Source of the DNA: Girardia tigrina
Lineage: Eukaryota
Assembly: GCA_001938485.1 (NCBI GenBank)
Contig: MQRK01244698.1
Span: forward strand, 12,202-65,602
Direction of reading: 5' to 3'
Length of the DNA stretch: 53,401 nucleotides
Position 1 is the stretch's first letter, and every line of letters starts with the position of its first letter. The notes beneath the pieces are model-generated. The model was not told the DNA's origin, ran no database searches, and saw only the letters and a program-made list of their open reading frames with translations. Shown here one piece after another: positions 2,673 through 40,049 of this stretch. The translations under genes and the position numbers were made by a program.

Positions 2673-4548
2673 TGTTGGATTCAATAAATTTCATTTTAAT
2701 TAAAGTAACTGTGGCTTCAATATCAACATATTATTTCGACATAAACCCCATCAGGTACCTCTTCCTGATATTGATAGATGGTCTATGCCATACCCAATTA
2801 TGTTCATCTGGCCCCATCCTTTCACCAGTGAACAAAATCAAGTATCTACCGGGTTCCTAATGATTGAAAATTTTGTTTGTTTTTTTTTGATCGGAATTCT
2901 GTTTCTTTATGTTCTTTAATATCATATGTTACATTCATTTATGAGTCCTTACCTAATTTAATTGATTATTTATTTGTTATTGAGGTTAGACTACTTATTT
3001 TTATCTTTTATATTTTTATAGATAGACCACAAGAGAAAAAACGCAATCAAATTCTAAATTTTGTTATTTGTTAATCAATCAAAAGAAAAATAAAAAAGGA
3101 AGAATCTGTTCATCGACATTAATCATCCGAGTCGGACGAAACCACAAATTTTTCGTTTTGGCCAGTTGTGATTGATCGGCACAAAAGGCGGTCACGATCT
3201 TCCTTCCATGTTTTGTACTTGGCTTCCCGATCTAACCATTTTTGCCTCCTGATCACTTCTTCAATACCAATCTTTGAAAGGGGTACGGCAATTTTATTAT
3301 CCATGCTGGGCTGTGGCGATCGGTCAATCCTCTTAAAATCGACACCACTTTCGTCCAGGATTTCTTGCTCTCCAACCACTGTGTCCAAACGCGTATGGGT
3401 TTTGATAAACTCCACTTCAATTCGCGCTTGTTAATCCAGTTGGGCTTTTCGTTTCCTTTGTTCTCGCCGTTTCTGTGTTCGGCTGATGATGCTCGGAGAA
3501 GAGGATGCCATATCTTCTCTTATTATTGAGGCGTAAACTGTTGATTTAGAGGTTGTAGGTTTGTTTCTTGGATCATCGACTATCTTAGTTTCCATGTTCC
3601 TAGCCGCCTCAACAATTAGCTCCGGGTGCTCTTGAGAAATTCGTTGGACCATTTTACGTTGACCGCTCATAATATTTTGTTGGATTCTCTCTTCATCAAC
3701 GTCCATTTGAAGTTTTTTATTTCTTTGTTGAGATTGAACATATTTTTCAACCATGGGTCGATGTACCGACATTGGGACTGACTGTCTTCTGTAGTCCTCA
3801 AACTCCGTATTGAGTCTCGATAATTTGGTCATTTGATTGCTTCAATACCTGGATTTCCTGAAGGAGCCGTTGATTTTCTTTCGATAGGGCTAGAATCTGC
3901 GACTCCTTTTTGCTCACCATAATTTGCATTCCTAAGAGAGAAGAGCGACAATGACGATGAATATTTCCTTTAACCATCAACACAAAAGAAAAACAAAGAG
4001 GAAAAAAGGTTGATAGAGGTTGGCGAGTTGAGCTCTTCATGGTAATATTATAGAATGTTTTGGGGAGTATTTCCTCCTCTTCAGCTGCCAGATCGTCAAC
4101 AGTCGCGGCAGGCACTAAAAGCACCTGCCGTTACCTGTCGACGGATCAGCGGCCATCAAAACCTCAACTCTCCATCCTCCATAAAACAAAAATTTTACCA
4201 AAAAAAAGGAATACATTTATTTTTATTATATTTCTACAAAAATCGAGCACATAGTTATACAAGAATCAAAACCCATCAAACCAAAATCAAGACATTCTCA
4301 TGAAAAAGAATACGTTACATGTCCAAAAATGTTACTGCAAGTATAACCTTACAGAAATTTAATAGGTACCCTTGTTAAATCAAAGTCTTTAGGTGTCCCA
4401 GAAAAATGATAATTAACAAGTACAATTAATTAAACAAGGAATGCGTGGGCGTCTATTAATTAATTTCTTCCATTAATTAGGTCATTACCATTAATCAATT
4501 AATTAAATAATTAAAATTGACGCCCAAGCAAATCCTGGGATCCCAACA
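2673..4548. mobile_element. 1.9-kb solo-LTR-like insertion with 4-bp TSD (CTAC)
   Basis: Termini TGTTGG...CCAACA. CTAC at 2669-2672 and 4549-4552. The flanking transposase frame is restored on removal. No internal direct repeat and no gag/pol motifs seen. Confidence 0.85.
3119..4156 (-). pseudogene. Spliced, coiled-coil/basic protein gene inside the solo LTR (exons 4156-4135 and 3931-3119; one frameshift, one stop)
   Basis: ATG GCC GCT GAT CCG TCG ACA G|GTAACG donor and CTCTTAG|GA ATG acceptor are both phase 1, giving MAADPSTGMQIMVSKKESQILALSKENQRLLQEIQVLK. The reading continues through ORFs 3832-3431 and 3415-3119. Confidence 0.6.
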
Positions 4549-5229
4549 CTACCATATATCCAAATAGAAATCAGTGCTGTTACTTTCATTGAAATGAAAC
4601 CAGTTGATTTCCTTACTACATGGCGTGCTCCAAGTAAATTCACAGTATGTGTTCTGGCATCCTCAAAAAATACTGCAGTTTCATCCATCATTAAAGTCTT
4701 TTTAATATTTAAATGAGGAAGACGATTTTTTAAATATTTCAAGTGATTTTTAAAAACTTAAATAGTAATACTAATAGGGTCGTGATACTATTTAAATAGT
4801 ATCACTAAAAATTTTTTAAATAGGTGATTATTATTTGGGTCGTGATACTATATGGGTTGGTGATACTAATTGGCGATATCCGTTAATAAATTTGATTTAA
4901 TTCTTGTTTCTTCTTTATCTTTCTACTCTTCTTTTATAATAGGCGATGATGCTGATTAGAATGTAATTCTAACTCCTTTCACACTCTTAATTACTTTAAA
5001 ATTCTTCTTAATTTTTTATAATCAAATTATTATTTTCATTTTTTAAAATAATTCTTCTAAATTTTTCCTTAATTATTTACATTTTAATTCTTAATTTATA
5101 TTATTATTTACTTGTTTTTAATAATTATTTTTTACTACAAAAGTAAATAAAAGAACTTCTATTTATAAATTAAAACAGATTTTAATATTTTAAATTTATT
5201 ATATTATATACTCAACACATTAAACAAAA

Positions 5230-8105: not shown

Positions 8106-9396
8106 TTTCCTAAGCCTACAACGGCTTTTTCTAACTAAGCAGGAGTGCCTCCGTAATGAACGGGTCCCCTGCAAAGGAGGAAANNNNNNNNNNNNNNNNN
8201 NNNNNNNNNNNNNNNNNNNNNNNNNNNNNNNNNNNNNNNNNNNNNNNNNNNNNNNNNNNNNNNNNNNNNNNNNNNNNNNNNNNNNNNNNNNNNNNNNNNN
8301 NNNNNNNNNNNNNNNNNNNNNNNNNNNNNNNNNNNNNNNNNNNNNNNNNNNNNNNNNNNNNNNNNAATGAATAATAATATTATTTATATTGGAACTATTT
8401 TTTACAGGTAAAAGTTATCCCTATTAACTACCTGGAGTCCCTNNNNNNNNNNNNNNNNNNNNNNNNNNNNNNNNNNNNNNNNNNNNNNNNNNNNNNNNNN
8501 NNNNNNNNNNNNNNNNNNNNNNATCCACATTTTATTTTAATTATAATTTATTATTTTTTTATAATTTATATATTTTTGTTTTTTAGGAGAGTAAGTTTAC
8601 TTATTTATTTATTTTTAAAATTTGTTTTTTAAAATATTTTTATTAATTTCAGGACCTTAACACTTGTAAGGTTCTATGGTCTTACCAATGTCTGATATAT
8701 TTTGAGCGATAGATTTTGTCACATCGGCTGGGAGGATTGCAAGGGTGTAATGGAAAAGAAACTCATGTGATGTGATGCATTAGGTCTTGAAATGTAATTC
8801 CAGTAAATCGAACTTACATTTGAGACTGTCTCTCGCGTCTAAGAAATACAGAGAGGGGATGAAAGGAGTGAGATGAGGTTGTTCGTGTCTTCAGTCGAAA
8901 CAGGAGCATTCATTTCTCCTTGCAAATAAGGGTGGGCAAAAATATGAGCTCCTTCACTAATACTGTAGTCACTTAGAAAAAGATGTGATCGTAGAGGCTT
9001 TGGTTATTTAAGGAGCAAAAAAACGATTTACAGATGAATCAAACGAAGGAAGAAGAGAAAAAACAATGTTACTTTCATTCTGCGAGTAAATTTCGCAATT
9101 TGAAAGCTCATGTCATAAAAGAAGCGGTCGATAAATTCGAATGCGCTTACGATAAAATCGAGGAAAACCTTCAAATGTGTTCAGAAACTCCATCAATTGC
9201 TAAGAAAAATTTTTGTGATAGCACATCTTTGGGTAAACTATATTCTTTTCGCTCCTTGAACAGTGATTCTCACCAGTCCAATCCTAACAGTCCTTCTTTA
9301 CTTAAAACTCCATACAGAAATTCGAGTGAACTTGGCATAAAAACCATCGTCAATGGGCCTAAAAGAAAAACTGAAGTTCTTTCTGGTTCTCAGTAT

Positions 9397-10820
9397 TAAG
9401 TGGGGGCACGGTTTCGGCAATACTGATAAATTCTCTTGCTTATGTTAATATACAGTATATATAGGAAATAAATTATTGTTTTAATTTTTCTGCGTTTTCG
9501 TGAACGTTTTAAGTTTTGGTGGTCTGTTTTATTGGTGAATTTATCTGAAACAATTATCTACTAATTAATTAGAAACCTTGATATAAGTAAGTATTTCTTT
9601 TTTTCTTATTCAATACTAGAGGAAGCTGACACTGTCTTATTTATTCCAGGAAATTGTTGTGTCAAGTCTTGCTCCCAAAAGAAATAAAATTCCAACTACG
9701 AGGCAAAGTGCTTTCTATCATATATTTGTTAATGTATCTGAACTTGCTGAAAATACTCTTGCCACATATTGTGACGTCATTAAATATTATCTGCTTGTGA
9801 GAATAGAGCCTAGCGTACGTCATTCAAATGTTATAATAAAAGTTCGATCATTGTATAAAAAAGCTTCTATCCCAGGAGTGTCATATAAACCGTGTGTGGA
9901 TATACTACAGAATTACCATGAGAAATACAAGAAGATGCTAAAAAAATTACTGGAAGTTGAAAAATGAATAGAGTTAAAAGTTGAAGATATGGAATATTTT
10001 TTTGCAAATTCAAAGAGTTTCGTGCCTGTAAATGTGGAAAACCATTTATAGTTCCACCTGCAGAACAAGTTTTCTTTGTAAATTAGCGTACTGAGCGCAA
10101 TATGATCATTGAAAGCATTGATCCTGTAGGAACAAGGCTACTACGACAATAGAAGGAAAGAATGATGGAAGAAAACGGCAGATATTTTGAAAACAATACA
10201 ACAAGAACCTCATGCAATAAACAAAATGATAGTTCCTGCTGTTCTCAAAGTTCTAATGAAGAAATAACTTTCCATCGGATCCATCAACTTCAACAACATA
10301 GACTTTAAATGTAGCCTCTTAAAACAAGCTCAATTTATCCAAATTAGCTGCAACTTATGACATATATGGTTTTTTAGACAGAGCAGCTGCATCAATCACA
10401 ACCTCTGTTTTGAAAGATGTTGGTTTCGTAACGGAAGAAACACGGCACATTGTCACTGATAGAAGTAAAATCAAATGAGAAAAGAAGGGAAGAAGAGAAG
10501 ACATGAAAGAAATAACTAAGTACCATATTCTCCATGGACTTTACTTTGATGGGAGGAAATGTTCAATTAACTTCAAGGAATCTCTTATCACCGCACAAAA
10601 CAACAAGAGGAGCACTATACTATTTTCTCTGAGTCTGGTTCTCGTTATTTAGCACATGTGGTACCTGCATCTGGTGTCACAAAGAGTATTAAAAGTTCCA
10701 TTTCTACCTTCCTTGAAGAGAAAAAGGTTGATTGTGATAAGTTGGTTGTAGTTGAAAGTGATGGAACTACCACGAATACAAGAAGATTTGGTAGAGTAAT
10801 AACATAATAATTTCATACCG
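9397..10820 (+). mobile_element. Degenerate hATm-like transposase remnant
   Basis: Fragments read LYKKASIP, DRAAASITTSVLKDVG, LYFDGRK, EEHYTIFSESGSRYLAHVVP and VESDGTTTNT, matching the FDGRKD/EEH/DGTxxNTG motifs of hATm transposases; many stops. Confidence 0.7.
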
Positions 10821-18700: not shown

Positions 18701-21700
18701 CACATTTTTGCTCTTATTATAGGCATAGATAGATCATATGCACAATCATTATTTATTCCATGCCTCGTCGTCACATACCAGTTCAGTAATATGTTGAGAA
18801 GAGCGAGTCATCAAGGGTAGATGAAATCATGCCATTGAGAGAGAGAATAAAGCGTGGAATTCTACCAACCAAGGGAAGTGGATGCGGTCTGTTGGAAGCA
18901 AATTCAAGCCTCATGGGTGTAGTTCCTGGTCGTGGTCTGTTATTAAAGAAAGCATCAAGTGGCGAGGGTGGAATTCTTGGACGTGGCCTTTCATCAAAGA
19001 AAACATCATGCGAAAAACGAGGAATTCTTGGAATGGAAGCTGACGGACGTGAAAGAAGATCAGCTGCGACAAAAGCCTTAAGCTCACTATGGAATATAAA
19101 GGATGATGAGTCAGGGGACGATGATCTTAGCACAGATAATAGCTGTGAAGAAAACGTATATAAATCAGACAGTAGTGATTTGAAGAGAATGATGAAAGTG
19201 TGGACGATAGCGACTCGTGTTTAGAAGAGATAATTTTCACAGAGGAAATGCAAGGGAAAGATGGAACACTCTGTTAATCGGTTGCTATGAATGACGGAGT
19301 GAGTGATAAAATCCCAGGTTACAATGTTTTCACTGGAAAAAGTGGATGCACACTCAAAAACAAGGAGTTCTATCAATTCTTCTGACGAATACAGTGCTTT
19401 TAATATTTTATTTGATGACAGCATGCTGCGTCACGTTTCAAAATGCACAGAGAGAGATGCACAAAGACGACTTGGAGCTGACACTTGGAGAATTTCAATT
19501 GGCGAATTACAAACATTTATTGACTTGCTGTTCATTCGCGGTGCATGTTGTGCCTCCAACATTCCACTAACCAAATTGTGGAACAGGAATTGGGGAATGG
19601 CAATTTTTTTCTTCAACCATGTCACGCAATCGATTCAAGCATATAATACAATATCTACGTTTGATGACAAATCTACACGAGGCGAAAGATTGAGAATGAT
19701 AAGTTTATCATGATTTCATGGCTTTATGATCGATCTATAGAAAATTGTCAATCTGCTTTCTATCCAGGCGTGGAGCTTACGATCGATGAACAACTCTTGC
19801 CTAGCAAATTCTGCTGTCCGTTCATACAATATATGGCCAATAAGTCTGACAAGTTTGGAATAAAATTTGGGCTCTTATGTAATACAGCAACTAAGTACGT
19901 ATTGAATGCTCAACCGTACTTGGGAAAAGATAACTTCAGACCACCCAACAAACAACTTAGTCATCACGTAACAACGGAGCTAATCAGACCGTATGTAGGC
20001 AAAGGACACAACCTAACAGCGGATAACTTTCTCACCTCCTTAGCTCTCGCGAAGGAGTTAAAGGCAAAGCGAACTACTCTTGTTGGGACTTGTCGATGGA
20101 CCAGACGTGAAATACCAAATGCAATCCACACCATGCATTGTAAAATGAAGAGGTATGACTCTCTCTTATTTTGTGACCAGTCTCAAACAGCAACACTTAC
20201 ACTGTACAAATCAAAACCGAAAAAGGCAGTCCTTCTAAGGTGTGTCCACTAAAAAAGTGCACAGGTTTTAAAACAATCATAACTTTTTAATGTAATATTA
20301 TATAATTTCATAAATTTGGAATTTAAATATTTATTTTAATAGGTTAGAAATAGTAAAGCAGGTATTTAAAATTTTTGGTTTAATATGTTTTATTTTAGAG
20401 ACAATTATAATGATTTCAAAACGACATGAAGATATAATCAATTTTTTCAAAACGCACAGTAAAAGTGAGACTGTGACAAAGTTAACTGGCATTCATTTTT
20501 CCAGAAGAGGTATATAAGCAATAATACAACGCTATGAGAAGACCGGCAGCATTGAAAGAAAAGTAGAAAGTGGAAGGAAACCTGTTAAAATGACGTCAGA
20601 CAAAAGGAAGAGACTTCTGCAGCGTGAAACTTTGACTGTTGGACAAAGTGTGAGAAAGTTAGGTAGAGAAATGAATGTTTCAAAGTCTTACGTGCATAAG
20701 ATGCTCAAGACTAAAAACATAGTGTTTCAAAAGAGGAAAGAAGCCCCAAAAGTTATTCCGACACAGATTATTCGCCAGAAAGCCAGGTTGCAAAATCTCG
20801 CTAATATTGTTGTGGAAAAGACCAAAATCGACTTTGTACTTGATGATGAGTCATATTTTACACTCACCGGAGCAATGACATCGGGTTATTATGTGGACCA
20901 AAAGAAGTTCGGTGATGTACCTGATAATATTCGCCTTAAATTTCGAGAGATATTCACAGTAAAAGTTTTGATTTTGGCAACTGTTTCCAGACGAGGCATT
21001 TCAAACCTGTACATCAGCAAATGGAAATCTGTAGCTTCTAATTCGGATATTTATATCTTCGAGTGCTTAATGAAGCGTTTGCTTCCTTATCTGAATGAGA
21101 AATACCCAGCTGGTCACTTCATCCTCCGGCTAGATCTTGCTTCTTGTCACTACGCCAAAGCAAGTCTGAAGTGCTTAGAGGACAACAAAATTCCATTTGT
21201 CAAAAAAGATTCGAATCCACCTTGTGCTCCCCAAATACGCCCAATTGAAAAGTTTTGGGCTCATTTAAAGGAGAAGGTGTATGAAAATGGTTGGACTGCC
21301 GATTCTGAAGACCAGTTGATTCGCAGAGTCAAACTAAAGCAAAGCATTTTAACAATTTATATTTTAGGACATTATTTGCAAATTTTAGACAAAGAATAAT
21401 GCTTGCTAACTCTTATGGCCTTAATAGTTTGATATAATAAAATAGTTATTGTGTTATTATGATCTAGTCTTTGTTCAGATTTCCGTCAATTTGAAGGTCT
21501 AATTAAAAAGTTATGATGGTTTTAAAACTTGTGCACTTTTTTAGTGGACACACCTTACTCAGTTTTGTATTGTCAAAAAAAGAGGAAAAAGCTCTTGCTC
21601 TTGTTTTGAAATATTGTAGGGATTATGGGTTACCGATTGATCGTGCTGACTTGAAAATGATGTTTCGAGAATATTGAATTCTAAAGATCAAAAATGGTCC

Positions 21701-26795: not shown

Positions 26796-29461
26796 TGTAG
26801 CGACAATAAGACCAACGAAAATATATTTTTTAATTATACAAGAATAACTCGATTTCAATAATTCTGCCAAACGTTAGTTCACTTAAACAAAATCTCTTTT
26901 TAAATCAAAATAATTAACTCTATACAACATCCCCACCAGATTCGTCAGAACACGAATCTTCATCAACCACATAATCCTCTAAATATTTGGGTCTTCTCCG
27001 CAGGCGTTTCATGTCAATACTCCTTGAATCATCAACTTCGAATTCCTCTTCCCAAGATACAGATTTGTCATTAACGTTCTCCGGCTCAACTCTCCTCGGC
27101 CGTAAATCACCGACATGCCAAGGGAAACTCGATCCATTGCATTCCACTAAATATTTACAGTTCGAAAGTTCTTTCAAAATCTGGCCTCTTAACCATTGCT
27201 GCGTGCAACTTGTACTACTCATTGGTTTCACCCAAACTAACTGATGATCACAGTACTTCGCACCTTTTTTCCTCACTTCGAACATATTGTCGCTTTCGCC
27301 ACAAAGCGGTTTCATACATCTATAATTATAAATCATCCAACTCGGCGGTTCCTTACCATTCGATGGAGTATTGTTATACCACCAAACTGCTTCTCCTATT
27401 GTGATATTCGATCTCGCAGCAATTCGTTTAATCGTGCGATGACTTCTTTCCACGACTCCGTTCCCGCTTGGTCGGTTGATTGCNNNNNNNNNNNNNNNNN
27501 NNNNNNNNNNNNNNNNNNNNNNNNNNNNNNNNNTTAATCGTGCGATGACTTCTTTCCACGACTCCGTTCCCGCTTGGTCGGTTGATTGCACGATAAATTA
27601 CCTCGACTCTCCAACCGTTGCAAAGTTCTATAAAGTCGTTTGAATAAAAAGTCGTATAATTATCCACAATCAGTTTTCTGGGCGCTCCGCGCTCCAAAAA
27701 CACAGAAGTTACTGCCGCAGTGATAGAAAGCGAACTTTCATCCCGGATTTCTTTCCATATCGCAAATCTGGATGGTCCGCAATCGATGAAGCTTAAATAC
27801 TTATCTCCATTGAATTTGGTGACATCTATTGCTAATCTTTNNNNNNNNNNNNNNNNNNNNNNNNNACCGTGATCCCATCTAACCGGTGCGGGATCAATTG
27901 ACTGGCATTTCTGGCACTTCGCAATCATGTTCGAAATATCTTTATCTGTGACATTAATATTTTCAATTTTGCAAAGGAACTTCATACTTTTTGCTCCCCA
28001 GTGGCACTTCAAATGAAGATCGTTCAGTCTTTCAATTTCACTCACCAAAGCAACACCGCATACACTTTTAGTCAGCTCCTTCGGAATTCTCGTCAGTACA
28101 TCTGCTTTATTCAGCTTGCTCGGCACAAACTCTATTCTAATAGTTAAATAAAATCCTCGCAAATTTCTTTAATAATAGATAACCGCCGTCTGATGAGCAA
28201 TTCTGAAAAAGCACTCGTGTTTAGTCGAGACTTACTTGTTAACACGTCATTCACCCAGGCAACCACAGATTTGTTATCACACTTCACTGTGATGTCTATC
28301 ATTCCTCATTTCACACATAAATTCAAACCCCTTACAACCGCTTCCAACTCCAAGAAACAGTCCACACTTTATCGAATCGAATATTGAAATTATACTTATT
28401 CATGCCACCACTTTCGGTGATAACTGCCTCTGATGAACCCCCTCTTTCACCAGACATACAAAAACTTGCTGAACCAGTGTCCACCCCAAATTTCACGCGG
28501 CCGTTATTGAGCGTCACCCCCCCCTAATTTCTCGATCATGTCAATACCCAATAACACATCAAAATTTTCGGGCAACCTGTTCATAACTGTACAATTTAAA
28601 GTTACTTTTTTATCATCCACCTCAAATACAACGGCACACATGCCTACTGGCACCCGCAACCCTTTGGCTAACGTGACTTTTTCCTGCTGCTGTTGTATTG
28701 ATTCTTCATCCACAAGACATCTTTTCACAACCGAACGAGAGCATCCGGTATCCACTAACGCTCTGCAGCTTTTCCCGTTCACAACGCATCGAATCACCGG
28801 AAGCGCCTTAAACCCCCTGAGAAGCCGTTGGCGCTGACGACCCCTCACTCGCGTTTCCCGCTCTGCAAAATCTCGCTATATGTTCTTTTTGATGACATTT
28901 AAAATATATCATGTTACTCCTTTGGGAAAAATTTTTAGAGTGACCCTCGTCCGCATTTCAACCACCCGTATCGACGCCCTCACCTGACTTCTTAAAACGG
29001 TGGTTGTCGCGGACGCTACCGTCATCTGCTCCTTTCAAACGATTGGATCTCTCAGAATCATTTAAACTCACCATCAACGTATTACATGTGCTCTGCATGA
29101 TACTCATATATGTTCGACTTACTTCCACAATTTCGTGCCATTCTTGAATCCCTCGTCTCTCGATTTCCAACGCAATCTCCAATGGCAATCCAGCTAGAAA
29201 TGCGGCAATCTCTAGGCTCTTCACCGTCTTCGCCAACTTCGACACTTCCGCGGCATACTCGTCGATGGTGTGATAATCAGAATATTTAATATTCTGTAAT
29301 CTGCGATACGCCTCCCGCGGTCGTACGCCAAACGCCAAATTCGTTACATGGAACACTTCCTCAATGTTCGTTTGTTGCTTCTCCGACATCTCCATATAAA
29401 CGCTAAGGGCCTGTCCGGTCAACAAAAACGGGAATAGCATGGCGGGGCACAATATGAACAA
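26796..29461 (-). mobile_element. Ty3/gypsy element: gag-knuckle, aspartic protease, RNase H C-half, integrase, PPT, 134-bp 3' LTR (26929-26796); RT absent
   Basis: Motifs FKCHQKEHIARFC; ALVDTGCSRS; LELEAVVRGLN..CDNKSV..NKADVLTR; H..CHWG..CQKC; LAIDVT..IVDN..NGVVERSHR. PPT TGGTGGGGA followed by TGTTG...CTACA. Confidence 0.92.
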
Positions 29462-30112
29462 TCGTACGCGGCGGTCCTGGTCCTAGTCTCTAAACCTACC
29501 TGAGTTATATGCAATGAAACAAGAGGCTCAAGCTCAGCAGAACCCATTTGATCATTTGTCTGACGGAGATTTTAAGATTTATAAATATTTTTTATGACAA
29601 CATTTTTTGTTTTGTGTTTTTTTGCATTCAAATTATCCCCCTACCCTGGTATCTCAAATTTAAACATAAACCATTGTAGCGGGAGTGAGAGCTTTGGCAA
29701 AGAAAACTCAAATTTTATCGGATCCAAACGTTTCATTGTTTAATTATTAACTTTCTCAAGAGTTCAATAATCTAATGAGCTATAAGTCCATATTCTACTG
29801 AACTTATTTTGTTTAGAGACATTATAAGAAAATACACAAATATTTTATACCAAACGTTTAGTCTTTCTACAGTAAAAGCTCACAACATTATATCTGTTGG
29901 TCAATTATTTCAAAAATATTTTATCATAGAACAATAGCATTTGGCATGCAGCTTAAGAATATGATAAGGACGTTACCAAAATTTTTGATAGAAATAAACA
30001 TGGTAGAAAAAACGTTAAGGCCAAAAATGTAGTATTTTGAAATGAATCTGCTATAATTTATTTAATTTTTAGAAAGTACTTAATAAATGCTGTTTAGAAA
30101 TATCCTATTTTA

Positions 30113-37019: not shown

Positions 37020-37940
37020 ATCCCAAATGCGAAAGAAAATTACAGATTTTTATGAGAATCAAAGGGTCGAAAAAATGTTAGTCAGGTTATGATGATCACC
37101 ACTAATAATTTACAAAACGGTGTAGTGGTGTTGAAAGAGACGACCGGGAATAAAAGCAAATCCTACATAAGAATAAAATCAGATCAATTGAACAAATTCG
37201 CGGTACTAGCAAATATCAAAGGACGAAGCCAAGAATACATCGAGTTTTGGTGGGTAAATAATATTGTATACTACCCCGTAACCAACCAACTGGAAACAAC
37301 AATGGGGAGATTGAACAAGTCGATCGACAGGAACCAACAGCAAAAATCAAAAATATATAATCCGATTTATTTGTCGTGCACTCAACAAAAAAGAAAAAGG
37401 AGAAGTGAGTTAAGATCAATAAAAATACAAGACGATTTCGAAAGAATTATATACCGGGCGTGCACTGAATATATGTTAAGAGAAAGGACGAAACTCGCAG
37501 AGGAAACAATGCAATATTCTCTATTAATACCAGAACCACCAAAAGGCAATAAGATTGAAAAGTACTATCATTATAGTGTATATAGAGAGAATCCCTATGC
37601 GGGATTGTACAACCGAAAGGGACCGAAATTAGAAAATTTCCTATATAAAATATACAACGACCAACAATCTATCAAAACTTCAACGGAGAAAAGTCGTTTC
37701 ATCAGCATTGATGAGAAGAGGATGCAACAAAAAACTGAAGACCCAATCGATTTTCTATCAGACAATGGTTACAACGGAAGTCCAAGAACAGGTTGAAGAC
37801 AGTTAAGATAACCCCGAAGTCGCGACCGAAAAAGCCATAGGACCACGGCACCTTGATAACAATACTCGCCGTGGTAAGCATCTCGTGGTAAGTAATGGCG
37901 TCCGCAGTAATCACCGTCGAAATTGTAATATGTATTGATG
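37020..37940 (+). pseudogene. env-like type-I membrane protein A (5'-truncated, disrupted)
   Basis: 235-aa ORF, then after frameshifts a stalk and hydrophobic TLITILAVVSIS..VMASAVITVEIVICI. Intronless and A-rich. Confidence 0.5.
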
Positions 37941-37987
37941 GTTCATCAGGAATGGTTTCACACGACAATCCAACTTACCAACCGTCG

Positions 37988-40049
37988 ATGATGTTAACAA
38001 GTATGATAATGGCAGCGATGATGATAAGCATCAGCGAAGCTACGGTATACCAATTCGCGTGGGGAAAACTAGTAGCCAGGTACAACCAGGTACATATGGA
38101 CACGCAATCAGAGATATCCCCACCCTAACGGATATGTGAAATAGCAAAACGACCGAAATGTAAGAAGCCGTCCACGAAATGGAGAGCAGCTATTCCCACA
38201 GTTTTAATGATTTTACGAACAGTCCCTTCATCTAGACCTACATTGGAACGTGAAATACGCACTATCGAGTGGCACACTAGTATAAAAGTAACTCAAAAGG
38301 AAGTGGAGTTGGATATGACCCCATGGTATCAGAACACTCGCTATTGCTTACCACTTTGGTGTCCAACAACCACATTTCTATATCTACCAGAGAAAGCAAG
38401 GGACATCGTAAAAAGGGTCCAGGGACAAGTACAAGTAGAAAATATATTAATGAACAAAGAGGGAGTAAGGGTATTATTGAAAGAGGGATATCACGGACAA
38501 TCGTCATCAAAAGGAGAATGTACACTTCCATTAAAAAATCGTAATAACATGAAAGCCCGGCTCGCAGTAGTAAAAACTCGAAAAATGAATGGACGACGGT
38601 TTCCTATACATTATCAGGAATAGGATATAAACGAATCACATGTTACAGTCGAACGAAACATGCAAATGTTGCGAATGCTATTGAAAGTACCGTTCAGACA
38701 TGTCACCTTATGAACTACTTCGAGGAATGACCGAGATTAGTAAAACAAATGTGGGCGAGAATCCCAAAGTAACCGAAACAGTGGGATCGAATTACGAATC
38801 ATATCTACACTTGGGTTTCGTAGAGGATTACGAGATAACGATAACCTCGAAAAGTGTTCAAATTTTGCGACACCTCAAGAAAAAAAATCGAGTGATCATC
38901 GTAATCTGCGGAACAGAAACAGGCACGAGCATGGGAACAGACCACCAGGAAGGAGCCATATGCCAAAGGAAAGGTGTCTACATTTGGATCGGTATGTTAG
39001 AAGTCCAAGTCGAAAAGAAAAAATCAATTATCAGAGATTATAGAGCGGTCCTTATTTATAATGAAACGATATTTTACCCGGTTGTGACTCGACTTAAAGC
39101 AACAGTATATCGGATCTATTATCATAAATACCATCGATCGCTTCGAGAACGAATAAACAGAATAATCAAATTTCAGAGCATTGTCAACGGACAAGCCAAC
39201 ATATTGCGAGAACCCTTTATATTGAATTGTCAAACCTTTGATCAGAAACGGGAATTAATATATCGTACACGACCGGCATCCTTAATCAAGCAATGTCGAA
39301 GTTATATGCACGCTGATACGGATACACCGACAAGATTAACAGTTACTTTTATGACTAGATACCAAGAAGCGAATTTTGCGATATACCATCAGGAATATTT
39401 AGTCCAAGGGAATCAAACGCACGTGATATGCCCACAGTACGGTGACAATGTGTACGAATGAAACCTAAAAGTTGCTAAACCCACTAGAATACTGATATAT
39501 CGGCATGAGTATAGAGGAAGACAAAGTAATAGTACCTACAACAATTTCAAAGACTAATATGAGAAATACCACGAATCAACCAATCCAACGGACAACTTGA
39601 AAAATCACAAAGATTCAACGGATAAAGAATAAAACGAGTTATCCTATATTTGTAATAATTATTGCAGGAGCCCTTGGCACCCTAGTCGCCCTGACAGGCA
39701 TCAATTATATCTCTACTATCGACGATATCAACTCAGAAAGTGAGAGTACCGAAAGAAAAGACTGACCGCAGGTATAACCAACACACCACCGAAAGGCCCA
39801 CAAAATCTAATGCAAACCGAAATCGAGAGAGAAATCAAAGAGAACGCACAAGCCAGAATCGACCACGAGTTACGAGATATCGCCACGCGAGATGGGACGC
39901 TTATCGAATTGACAAACCTGCCGAGATTGTCGACTCGACTGAGAACTCTTCATCATCTTGAGTTTCAACGGCCGACGTGGGCGAAAAATGCCGAGACGAT
40001 AACGCCGCGGTTCGGACACCGACCGAACACGATTGGAACATTTGTATAG
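37988..40049 (+). pseudogene. env-like type-I membrane protein B (signal peptide, ectodomain, T-rich stalk, TM, tail; disrupted)
   Basis: Signal-like MMLTSMIMAAMMISISEA; ORFs 38207-38623 and 38700-39461; TM YPIFVIIIAGALGTLVALTGI at about 39640-39702; basic tail. Confidence 0.55.

Follow-up and report, generated by a model that had tools for sequence, protein, structure and literature searches.

A hallmark of complex retroviruses is that a protein controls the export of their unspliced RNA. Rev, Rex, Rec and Rem combine an arginine-rich motif for RNA binding and nuclear localization with a leucine-rich CRM1 export signal, and genes encoded by an LTR are mainly known from MMTV (sag). In the available parts of two accounts of these systems, the RexRE lies in the 3′ LTR, the RmRE overlaps the 3′ LTR, and the RRE is removed by splicing (PMC12789967, PMC2661877). 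MMTV proviruses without the rem intron exist, according to part of a third account (PMC11998498). Outside the retroviruses, the giant gypsy-like Burro/GYPSM1 elements of planarians (PMC6431247) and the GAG-ENV-POL errantiviruses of Platyhelminthes (PMC13524379) are described, in the parts available, with the order CCHC Gag, mononegavirus-type fusion glycoprotein, protease and integrase, the same as in the element reported here; those parts make no mention of an LTR-encoded gene or intron. A literature search, with most subscription papers outside its reach, returned no paper describing, within the LTR of a retrotransposon, a gene with an intron or a system resembling Rev. Here we describe such an LTR gene, starting from a 53,401-nucleotide stretch of Girardia tigrina DNA (contig MQRK01244698.1; hereafter the window).

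The solo LTR and its parent element

The 1,876-bp insert in the window is a solo LTR (Table 1). The preliminary description had claimed TG..CA inverted ends and a CTAC target site duplication (TSD), and both are present, with TGTTGG at 2673 and CCAACA at 4548. Its solo LTR assignment is borne out by a 4-bp TSD at 26 of 31 distinct full-length copies and by the primer binding site (PBS), gag, env and integrase associated with other copies. The empty site was rebuilt in silico, and the transposase-like frame is open through it; contigs of two public runs (X2 and X3) join 2668 directly to 4549. The restoration of the interrupted frame therefore stands. The pogo label is presumptive and based on motifs; a Pfam search of the transposase pieces returned no recognized family. 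A genome search for the LTR gave 1,379 candidate copies, 40 of which were scored, yielding 46 matches with 87–100% identity. The copies split into subfamily A, which is star-like and includes the window copy, and a younger subfamily B.

Table 1. Features of the insert and its surroundings, in window coordinates
Feature	Position	Strand	Basis
Solo LTR (family A) of an env-bearing Burro-type Ty3/gypsy element	2673–4548	− (element sense)	Copies, TSDs, PBS after the 2673 end, gag/env/PR/IN
TSD CTAC, left copy	2669–2672	none	Sequence
TSD CTAC, right copy	4549–4552	none	Sequence
Pogo-like DNA transposase remnant, 3′ part	2300–2672 (left limit approximate)	−	Open frame, contig joints
Pogo-like DNA transposase remnant, 5′ part	4549–4760 (right limit approximate)	−	Open frame, contig joints
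Putative non-coding exon 1, possible promoter region	4199–4548	−	Homology to intron-less family D copies
Putative 267-nt intron, GTAAAA...CTCTTAG	3932–4198	−	Homologous stretch precisely removed in three family D copies
203-nt intron of the preliminary description	3932–4134	−	Donor in an internal loop of the rod, absent in D; at most an alternative donor
Rod-like RNA structure inside the intron	4012–4182	−	Predicted fold; inner hairpin ~4155–4085
LTR protein gene	3119–3929	−	~260–270 codons in the families; first ATG 3929, second 3920; broken here
Arginine-rich motif SRTQKRREQRKRKAQ	3440–3484	−	Near-invariant in four families
C-terminal motif RSITTG-x-x-EEF-hydrophobic-SD	3122–3179	−	Conserved; SIM-like in families C and D
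Candidate polyadenylation hexamers AATAAA, ATTAAA	2957–2974	−	Weak, DNA AT-rich
Short non-coding block common to families A and C/D	2789–2859	−	Between-family conservation

Several other repeats lie in the window. A Tc1/mariner-type element (20236–21557) with 56-nt TIRs and a 293-codon frame (DDE_3) adjoins a piggyBac-like DDE_Tnp_1_7 remnant (19668–20249), and a type of small LTR element with gag and integrase is present as two decayed copies, at 1624–2340 and 26923–29482, on opposite strands. Three plus-strand frames of 164–258 codons at 37056–39458 gave no Pfam match over the cut-off.

On the window-minus strand, the LTR end is followed by a 9-nt spacer and then by TGGGGGCTCA(A/G)C(C/T)GGGA, a PBS of the tRNA-Pro type by comparison with rows of the PMC13524379 supplement. 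This pattern has nine matches on seven contigs and none in the control; no PBS-flanked LTR of families C or D was found, and no tRNA-Pro gene was present in the loci examined. On contig C214937, the PBS is followed on the same strand by a weak gag match and a Monjiviricetes_fusion glycoprotein (E 1e-37), and a second, interrupted LTR lies 12 kb further. The paired LTRs that the preliminary description proposed to look for do occur: this pair encloses gag and env on C214937, a gapped and rearranged contig, and in locus L139 an integrase lies 1.1 kb ahead of the 3′ LTR. A protease is located 3′ of env in four loci (L211, L213, L215 and L253), and a related gag carries CCHC knuckles. These fragments indicate that the parent is an env-bearing Burro-type Ty3/gypsy element with the order gag-env-pol. 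Its LTR measures 1.9–2.1 kb and its internal region approximately 12–13 kb as estimated from fragments, smaller than in the Burro/GYPSM1 elements as far as their account is available; the fragments look compact, with no BIR, MATH or BCL2 cargo in those examined. No intact full-length element was found among the loci examined, whose contigs are gapped.

The LTR gene is oriented in the sense of the element, since it shares the window-minus strand with the PBS, gag, env and integrase. The preliminary description had supposed that, if the gene were antisense to the element, its intron would survive reverse transcription. The shared strand rules out that orientation, which therefore cannot account for intron survival.

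Further features of the element and its relatives were observed. On C214937, LTR 3′ ends with a PBS occur three times in tandem before gag (L031:2436–7390), reflecting rearrangement or an assembly artefact. A strong polypyrimidine tract with CAG is found at the start of the gag region (L031, ~9430–9460), and gag-env-pol may also come from spliced RNA. No polypurine tract precedes the 3′ LTR; its place is taken by a conserved C-rich motif, TACGATTCCGGG...AAACCCCCCAGTAA, an imperfect inverted copy of the tRNA-Pro PBS. This motif is located just 5′ of the 3′ LTR TG in L139 (3885–3944), L149, L184, L189, L196, L198, L201, L202 and L204, and occurs in all families. Judging from these sequences, plus-strand priming of the parent element may be unusual. 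Larger relatives of Burro size (L246, L254/L255, L259/L260 and L262) possess open polyproteins of 3,000–4,000 codons and the same tRNA-Pro PBS, with a second PBS-like motif inside the LTR end (L245:60–140); a profile of the LTR protein gave no match to these relatives in the gapped genome data. A different gypsy-like element encodes a DEDDh exonuclease (L032:5749–6501, minus; Pfam RNase_T, E 2e-7) downstream of its integrase (8421–9230, minus). Duplicated intronless RING plus MATH (TRAF-like) coding pieces are present in L035 (4459–4896, minus) and L036 (1741–3160, minus). Many repeats (L263–L268 and L272–L276) fuse a ubiquitin domain and a fragment with presumed Hsp90-like motifs to an apparent Bel/Pao gag.

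The intron and the structured RNA within it

Three of 49 family D copies precisely lack a GT..AG stretch that maps to window positions 4198 to 3932, namely one of the 16 first seen, two of the 15 chosen for a suggestive frame length and none of the 18 unselected, with four fetched regions lacking an ORF start left out of the count. The intron-less copies (L236, L285/L339 and L286/L340) lie on different contigs and have the junction TAG/CATG in common. They are 354 nt shorter than L241, and only a 2-nt AG is common to both ends of the missing stretch. L236 is a solo LTR with a CGTT TSD. In a weakly supported tree, L236 and L286 are placed among intron-bearing copies and are not mutual sisters (L285 was not placed). 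These copies constitute natural proof of splicing within the LTR, which, as observed in family D, contains a real GT..AG intron preceded by a non-coding exon 1.

The donor GT belongs to a second GGTAA, directly upstream of the structured region, that all families carry. It is retained in 35 of 37 unspliced D copies and is found at 4198 in 30 of 31 A/B copies, 13 of them 1–2 alignment columns off. Since no intron-less copy occurs in A/B (0/41) or among the C rows (0/49), we infer the donor at 4198, and with it a family A intron of 4198–3932, from homology to family D. One A/B-type copy has a longer deletion, which is not GT..AG.

The preliminary description had proposed a 203-nt intron (4134–3932) downstream of a phase-compatible coding exon. 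The GT at 4134 and the AG at 3932 are both present and the acceptor is upheld, but the intron-less D copies correspond to a donor at 4198. The sequence AG/GTAA at 4134 occurs in 24 of 28 A/B copies and the ATG at 4157 in 23 of 30, both inside the rod, and the 4134 donor may serve family A as an alternative or minor site. A coding exon 1 is contradicted by the spacing between the acceptor-like YAG and the ATG, which is 2 nt in A and part of C, 3 nt in the rest of C, and 1 nt in D, and by family D, in which both the exon-1 ATG and the hairpin GT are missing. Taken as a whole, the model of two exons on the antisense strand, the first of them coding and joined from the 4134 donor, retains the conserved donor and ATG of A/B in its favor and is nonetheless barely credible, given that the gene is sense, that phase and exon-1 ATG vary between families, and that the intron-less copies use the upstream donor.

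Other routes to the protein were considered and rejected. A longer N-terminus translated straight through the intron, where L015 has an open frame, is incompatible with a 1-nt indel shared by subfamily B and with families C and D, which have no such frame. MMTV-like splicing from a donor at 2952 was discarded, with AG/GTAAG in only 19 of 31 A/B copies and absent from C and D. Spliced-leader trans-splicing at 3932 is unnecessary given the cis junction in family D. The single metagenome match to the spliced-spacing pattern (L278) is unrelated DNA. Contigs of five public runs (X1–X4 and X7) contained no GT-AG joint; these contigs also cover the flanks and look DNA-like, and part of the pyrimidine tract was skipped, so the result does not bear on expression.

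The intron is predicted to contain a conserved RNA rod of approximately 170 nt, the strongest-folding window of the LTR. The predicted sense fold (4182–4012) has an energy of −81.3 kcal/mol (z −7.85), compared with −66.7 kcal/mol (z −5.42) on the opposite strand. Every one of the 28 A/B copies free of N shows z < −3, and the sense strand is the more stable in 27. Families C and D exhibit the same long-range closing stem, with the inner hairpin as 1–3 (up to 4) tandem units. Across 59 hairpin units, a biased set in that they were chosen by stem motif, the majority of pairs are kept, some as G-U, and one pair runs through the series C-G/U-G/U-A. A ribozyme or known RNA family was rejected as an identity for the rod, with no Rfam match near threshold. 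Between families C and D, identity reaches 93% over the first 380 nt of the LTR and 87% in the tail, and falls to 71–81% in the rod region and 61–63% in the ORF (pS 0.83). Since the two families differ far more in the rod region and the ORF than in the 5′ part or tail of the LTR, the rod and the gene have been exchanged, or have diverged, jointly within a common LTR frame.

The LTR protein

The window copy of the gene is a broken relic, with a frameshift near 3825–3829 and a stop at 3433–3431; spliced as first proposed it encodes 51 codons, not the claimed ~280 amino acids. A natural copy has 274 open codons, against at most 178 in 5,000 shuffles. Homologous ORFs occupy the same place in two more LTR families of the genome, C and D, and a fourth family with such an ORF is represented by P0011. 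Pairwise protein identities among families A, C and D are 98/259, 100/259 and 118/254 (38–46%). The claim of a protein-coding gene in the LTR, for which a consensus-based selection check had been suggested, is sustained by the comparison of 12 A/B copies, selected as free of frameshifts, with 22 C copies: pS is 0.76 (saturated) and pN 0.40. Identity by codon position 1/2/3 is 54/65/38% for A/B versus C, and the A–D and C–D comparisons follow the same pattern. The ORF is evidently under purifying selection in the replicating lineages, across three LTR families. Subfamily A versus B gave a ratio of 0.72 (CI 0.37–1.47), which is not significant. Since private changes are spread evenly over codon positions (142/131/141), the solo LTRs decay neutrally. 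Stop-free copies number 2 of 12 in the frameshift-free A/B set, 8 of 22 in C and 4 of 19 in D. With most copies broken, the idea that each solo LTR leaves behind a self-contained gene is not supported: solo LTRs are not maintained as working genes, and expression from one would depend on where the promoter lies.

Three blocks of the protein are conserved: N-terminal helices, the basic stretch SR(T/S/A)(Q/K)KRREQRKRKAQ, and the tail RSITTG-x-x-EE(F/Y)-hydrophobic-(S/T)D. Around the arginine-rich motif, 11 of 15 residues are identical in three families, as are 10 of the last 15 residues and none of 45 in the linker that follows the motif. The protein was initially called basic; its composition (K+R 49, D+E 42) confines the basic character to one patch. 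The AlphaFold model consists of long helices and disorder and is weak (pLDDT 62, pTM 0.22). The structure and profile searches suggested for finding relatives yielded coiled-coil noise and nothing usable from Pfam, PDB, Foldseek-viral or Atlas, and large homology searches returned just 2, 5 and 9 family members, from public assemblies. Compared with the SIM pattern, an hhXh or hXhh core followed by acidic or serine residues, the tail agrees well in C and partially in D and A. A leucine-type export signal pattern occurs in C and D and is not at the same place in A/B. A ubiquitin/SUMO-like domain in the polyprotein, considered as a partner for the tail, was rejected when the ubiquitin-like segment before env failed confirmation; a PF11976 search gave ubiquitin-type sequences and no SUMO among the 15 loci examined.

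Possible function and comparison with known systems

A sense intron in the LTR must be kept in the RNA that is copied and yet be spliced out for the protein to be made. The regulatory role first suggested for the gene remains the best guess: with a probability of roughly one half, by analogy and from the sequence features above, the LTR gene works as a Rev/RRE-type switch inside the LTR. RNA from a promoter upstream of the donor, either within the first 350–450 nt of the LTR or within the 1.1-kb stretch following the integrase, would be spliced to give the LTR protein. The long helices of this protein would mediate oligomerization and its arginine-rich motif would contact the rod; the rod-bound protein would restrain splicing and allow the unspliced RNA to be exported or packaged, so that as a rule only intron-bearing RNA would be copied by reverse transcription. 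The persistence of a sense intron and the rarity of intron-less copies would follow, since only intron-bearing RNA would be copied under this switch. A structured intron element combined with a basic-motif protein made from spliced RNA would match the logic of Rev/RRE and Rex/RexRE as outlined in part of PMC12789967. The joint change of rod and gene is counted in favor of the switch. Against it, the arginine-rich motif may be only a nuclear localization signal, and the CTE, according to part of the same account, exemplifies an RNA rod able to act without a viral protein (PMC12789967). Also weighing against the switch are the missing conserved export signal, the missing homology to Rev-type proteins, the absence of spliced joints from the DNA-like run contigs and of intron-less copies from A/B and C, the non-significant A versus B ratio, and the size of the protein. 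We put forward more tentatively the wider proposal that a Ty3/gypsy element evolved, independently of retroviruses, a complete Rev/RRE-type switch in its LTR, with the intron as response element followed by its reader gene, and that the pair was swapped between families as a cognate cassette and lets a sense intron pass reverse transcription.

The same features can be read in other ways. The protein might be a nuclear anti-silencing factor, its basic motif an NLS and its tail a DAXX-like SIM acting as a decoy of SUMO-dependent transposon silencing, with the rod alone, in the manner of a CTE, serving in export, packaging or the control of splicing. In favor of this, the tail of family C, FIVLSDSEN, shares six of eight residues with the DAXX SIM IIVLSDSD, as given in part of PMC8616421, the last residues are strongly conserved in three families, Burro is silenced by PIWI in planarians according to the available part of PMC8532177, and the C/D ORF exchange could reflect an arms race. 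However, families A (FVVS) and D (FVNL) have a less convincing hydrophobic core, degenerate patterns are the rule for SIMs, and conservation reaches upstream (RSITTG), past a SIM. The decoy also leaves the joint change of rod and gene unexplained, and we regard it as rather unlikely; it is compatible with the Rev-like reading, and the two are not mutually exclusive.

The pairing of a basic motif with a hairpin also fits a Tat/TAR-like mechanism. The main promoter would then occupy the first 350 nt, nascent RNA would carry the rod close to its 5′ end as part of a long R, and the bound protein would favor elongation or help transcription past the poly(A) site of the 5′ LTR. Such a mechanism would suit the tandem amplification of hairpin units in C and D and the need of ORF translation for a promoter upstream of the donor. 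It is nevertheless improbable: an R plus U5 of at least 1.5 kb would be required, the protein has no cysteine-rich Tat-type domain, and a rod exactly within the intron is better suited to splicing or export functions. An adaptor for structure or packaging, a coiled-coil scaffold linking genomic RNA to Gag or the particle with no part in splicing or export, would make sense of the long helices, the lack of an enzyme fold and a rod that is a good packaging signal limited to unspliced RNA. With CCHC knuckles already present in Gag, and with basic and acidic-tail motifs that look nuclear, we give this adaptor very little weight. If the Rev-like switch is the correct reading, invertebrate env-bearing gypsy elements would also be "complex", and the natural protein/RNA pairs of families A, C and D would offer a ready specificity test. 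Thousands of solo LTRs spread the promoter-intron-ORF unit, its promoter being a candidate, through the host genome.

Among known LTR genes, MMTV sag is likewise a selected accessory ORF in the LTR and prone to recombination, and the intron-less D copies resemble the rem-intron-less MMTV proviruses, to judge from the available part of PMC11998498. In contrast to the situation in MMTV, the donor, intron and acceptor here all lie within the LTR, and whereas Sag is a type II membrane superantigen in that source, the LTR protein has no membrane segment after the ATG. The additional ORFs of plant LTR retrotransposons are also conserved extra ORFs of unknown origin, but they sit internally, for the most part 3′ of pol and ahead of the 3′ LTR, and are often antisense, as stated in part of PMC7264820. 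The Rev/RRE, Rex/RexRE, Rem/RmRE and Rec systems, as far as PMC12789967 and PMC2661877 are available, resemble the LTR gene in combining an accessory gene expressed by splicing and a basic motif with a structured cis element, which here is predicted. By sequence, the Rev-type features comprise a spliced RNA (in D, and by extension in A), the arginine-rich motif and a predicted cis structure limited to unspliced RNA. The LTR protein, at ~260 amino acids over twice the size of Rev (116 amino acids), could not be connected by sequence or by fold with Rev, Rex, Rec or Rem in our searches and has no conserved export signal. It is thus not a member of the Rev family and may still work like one, with gene and putative response element united in a single LTR and with a Ty3/gypsy element, not a retrovirus, as their host.
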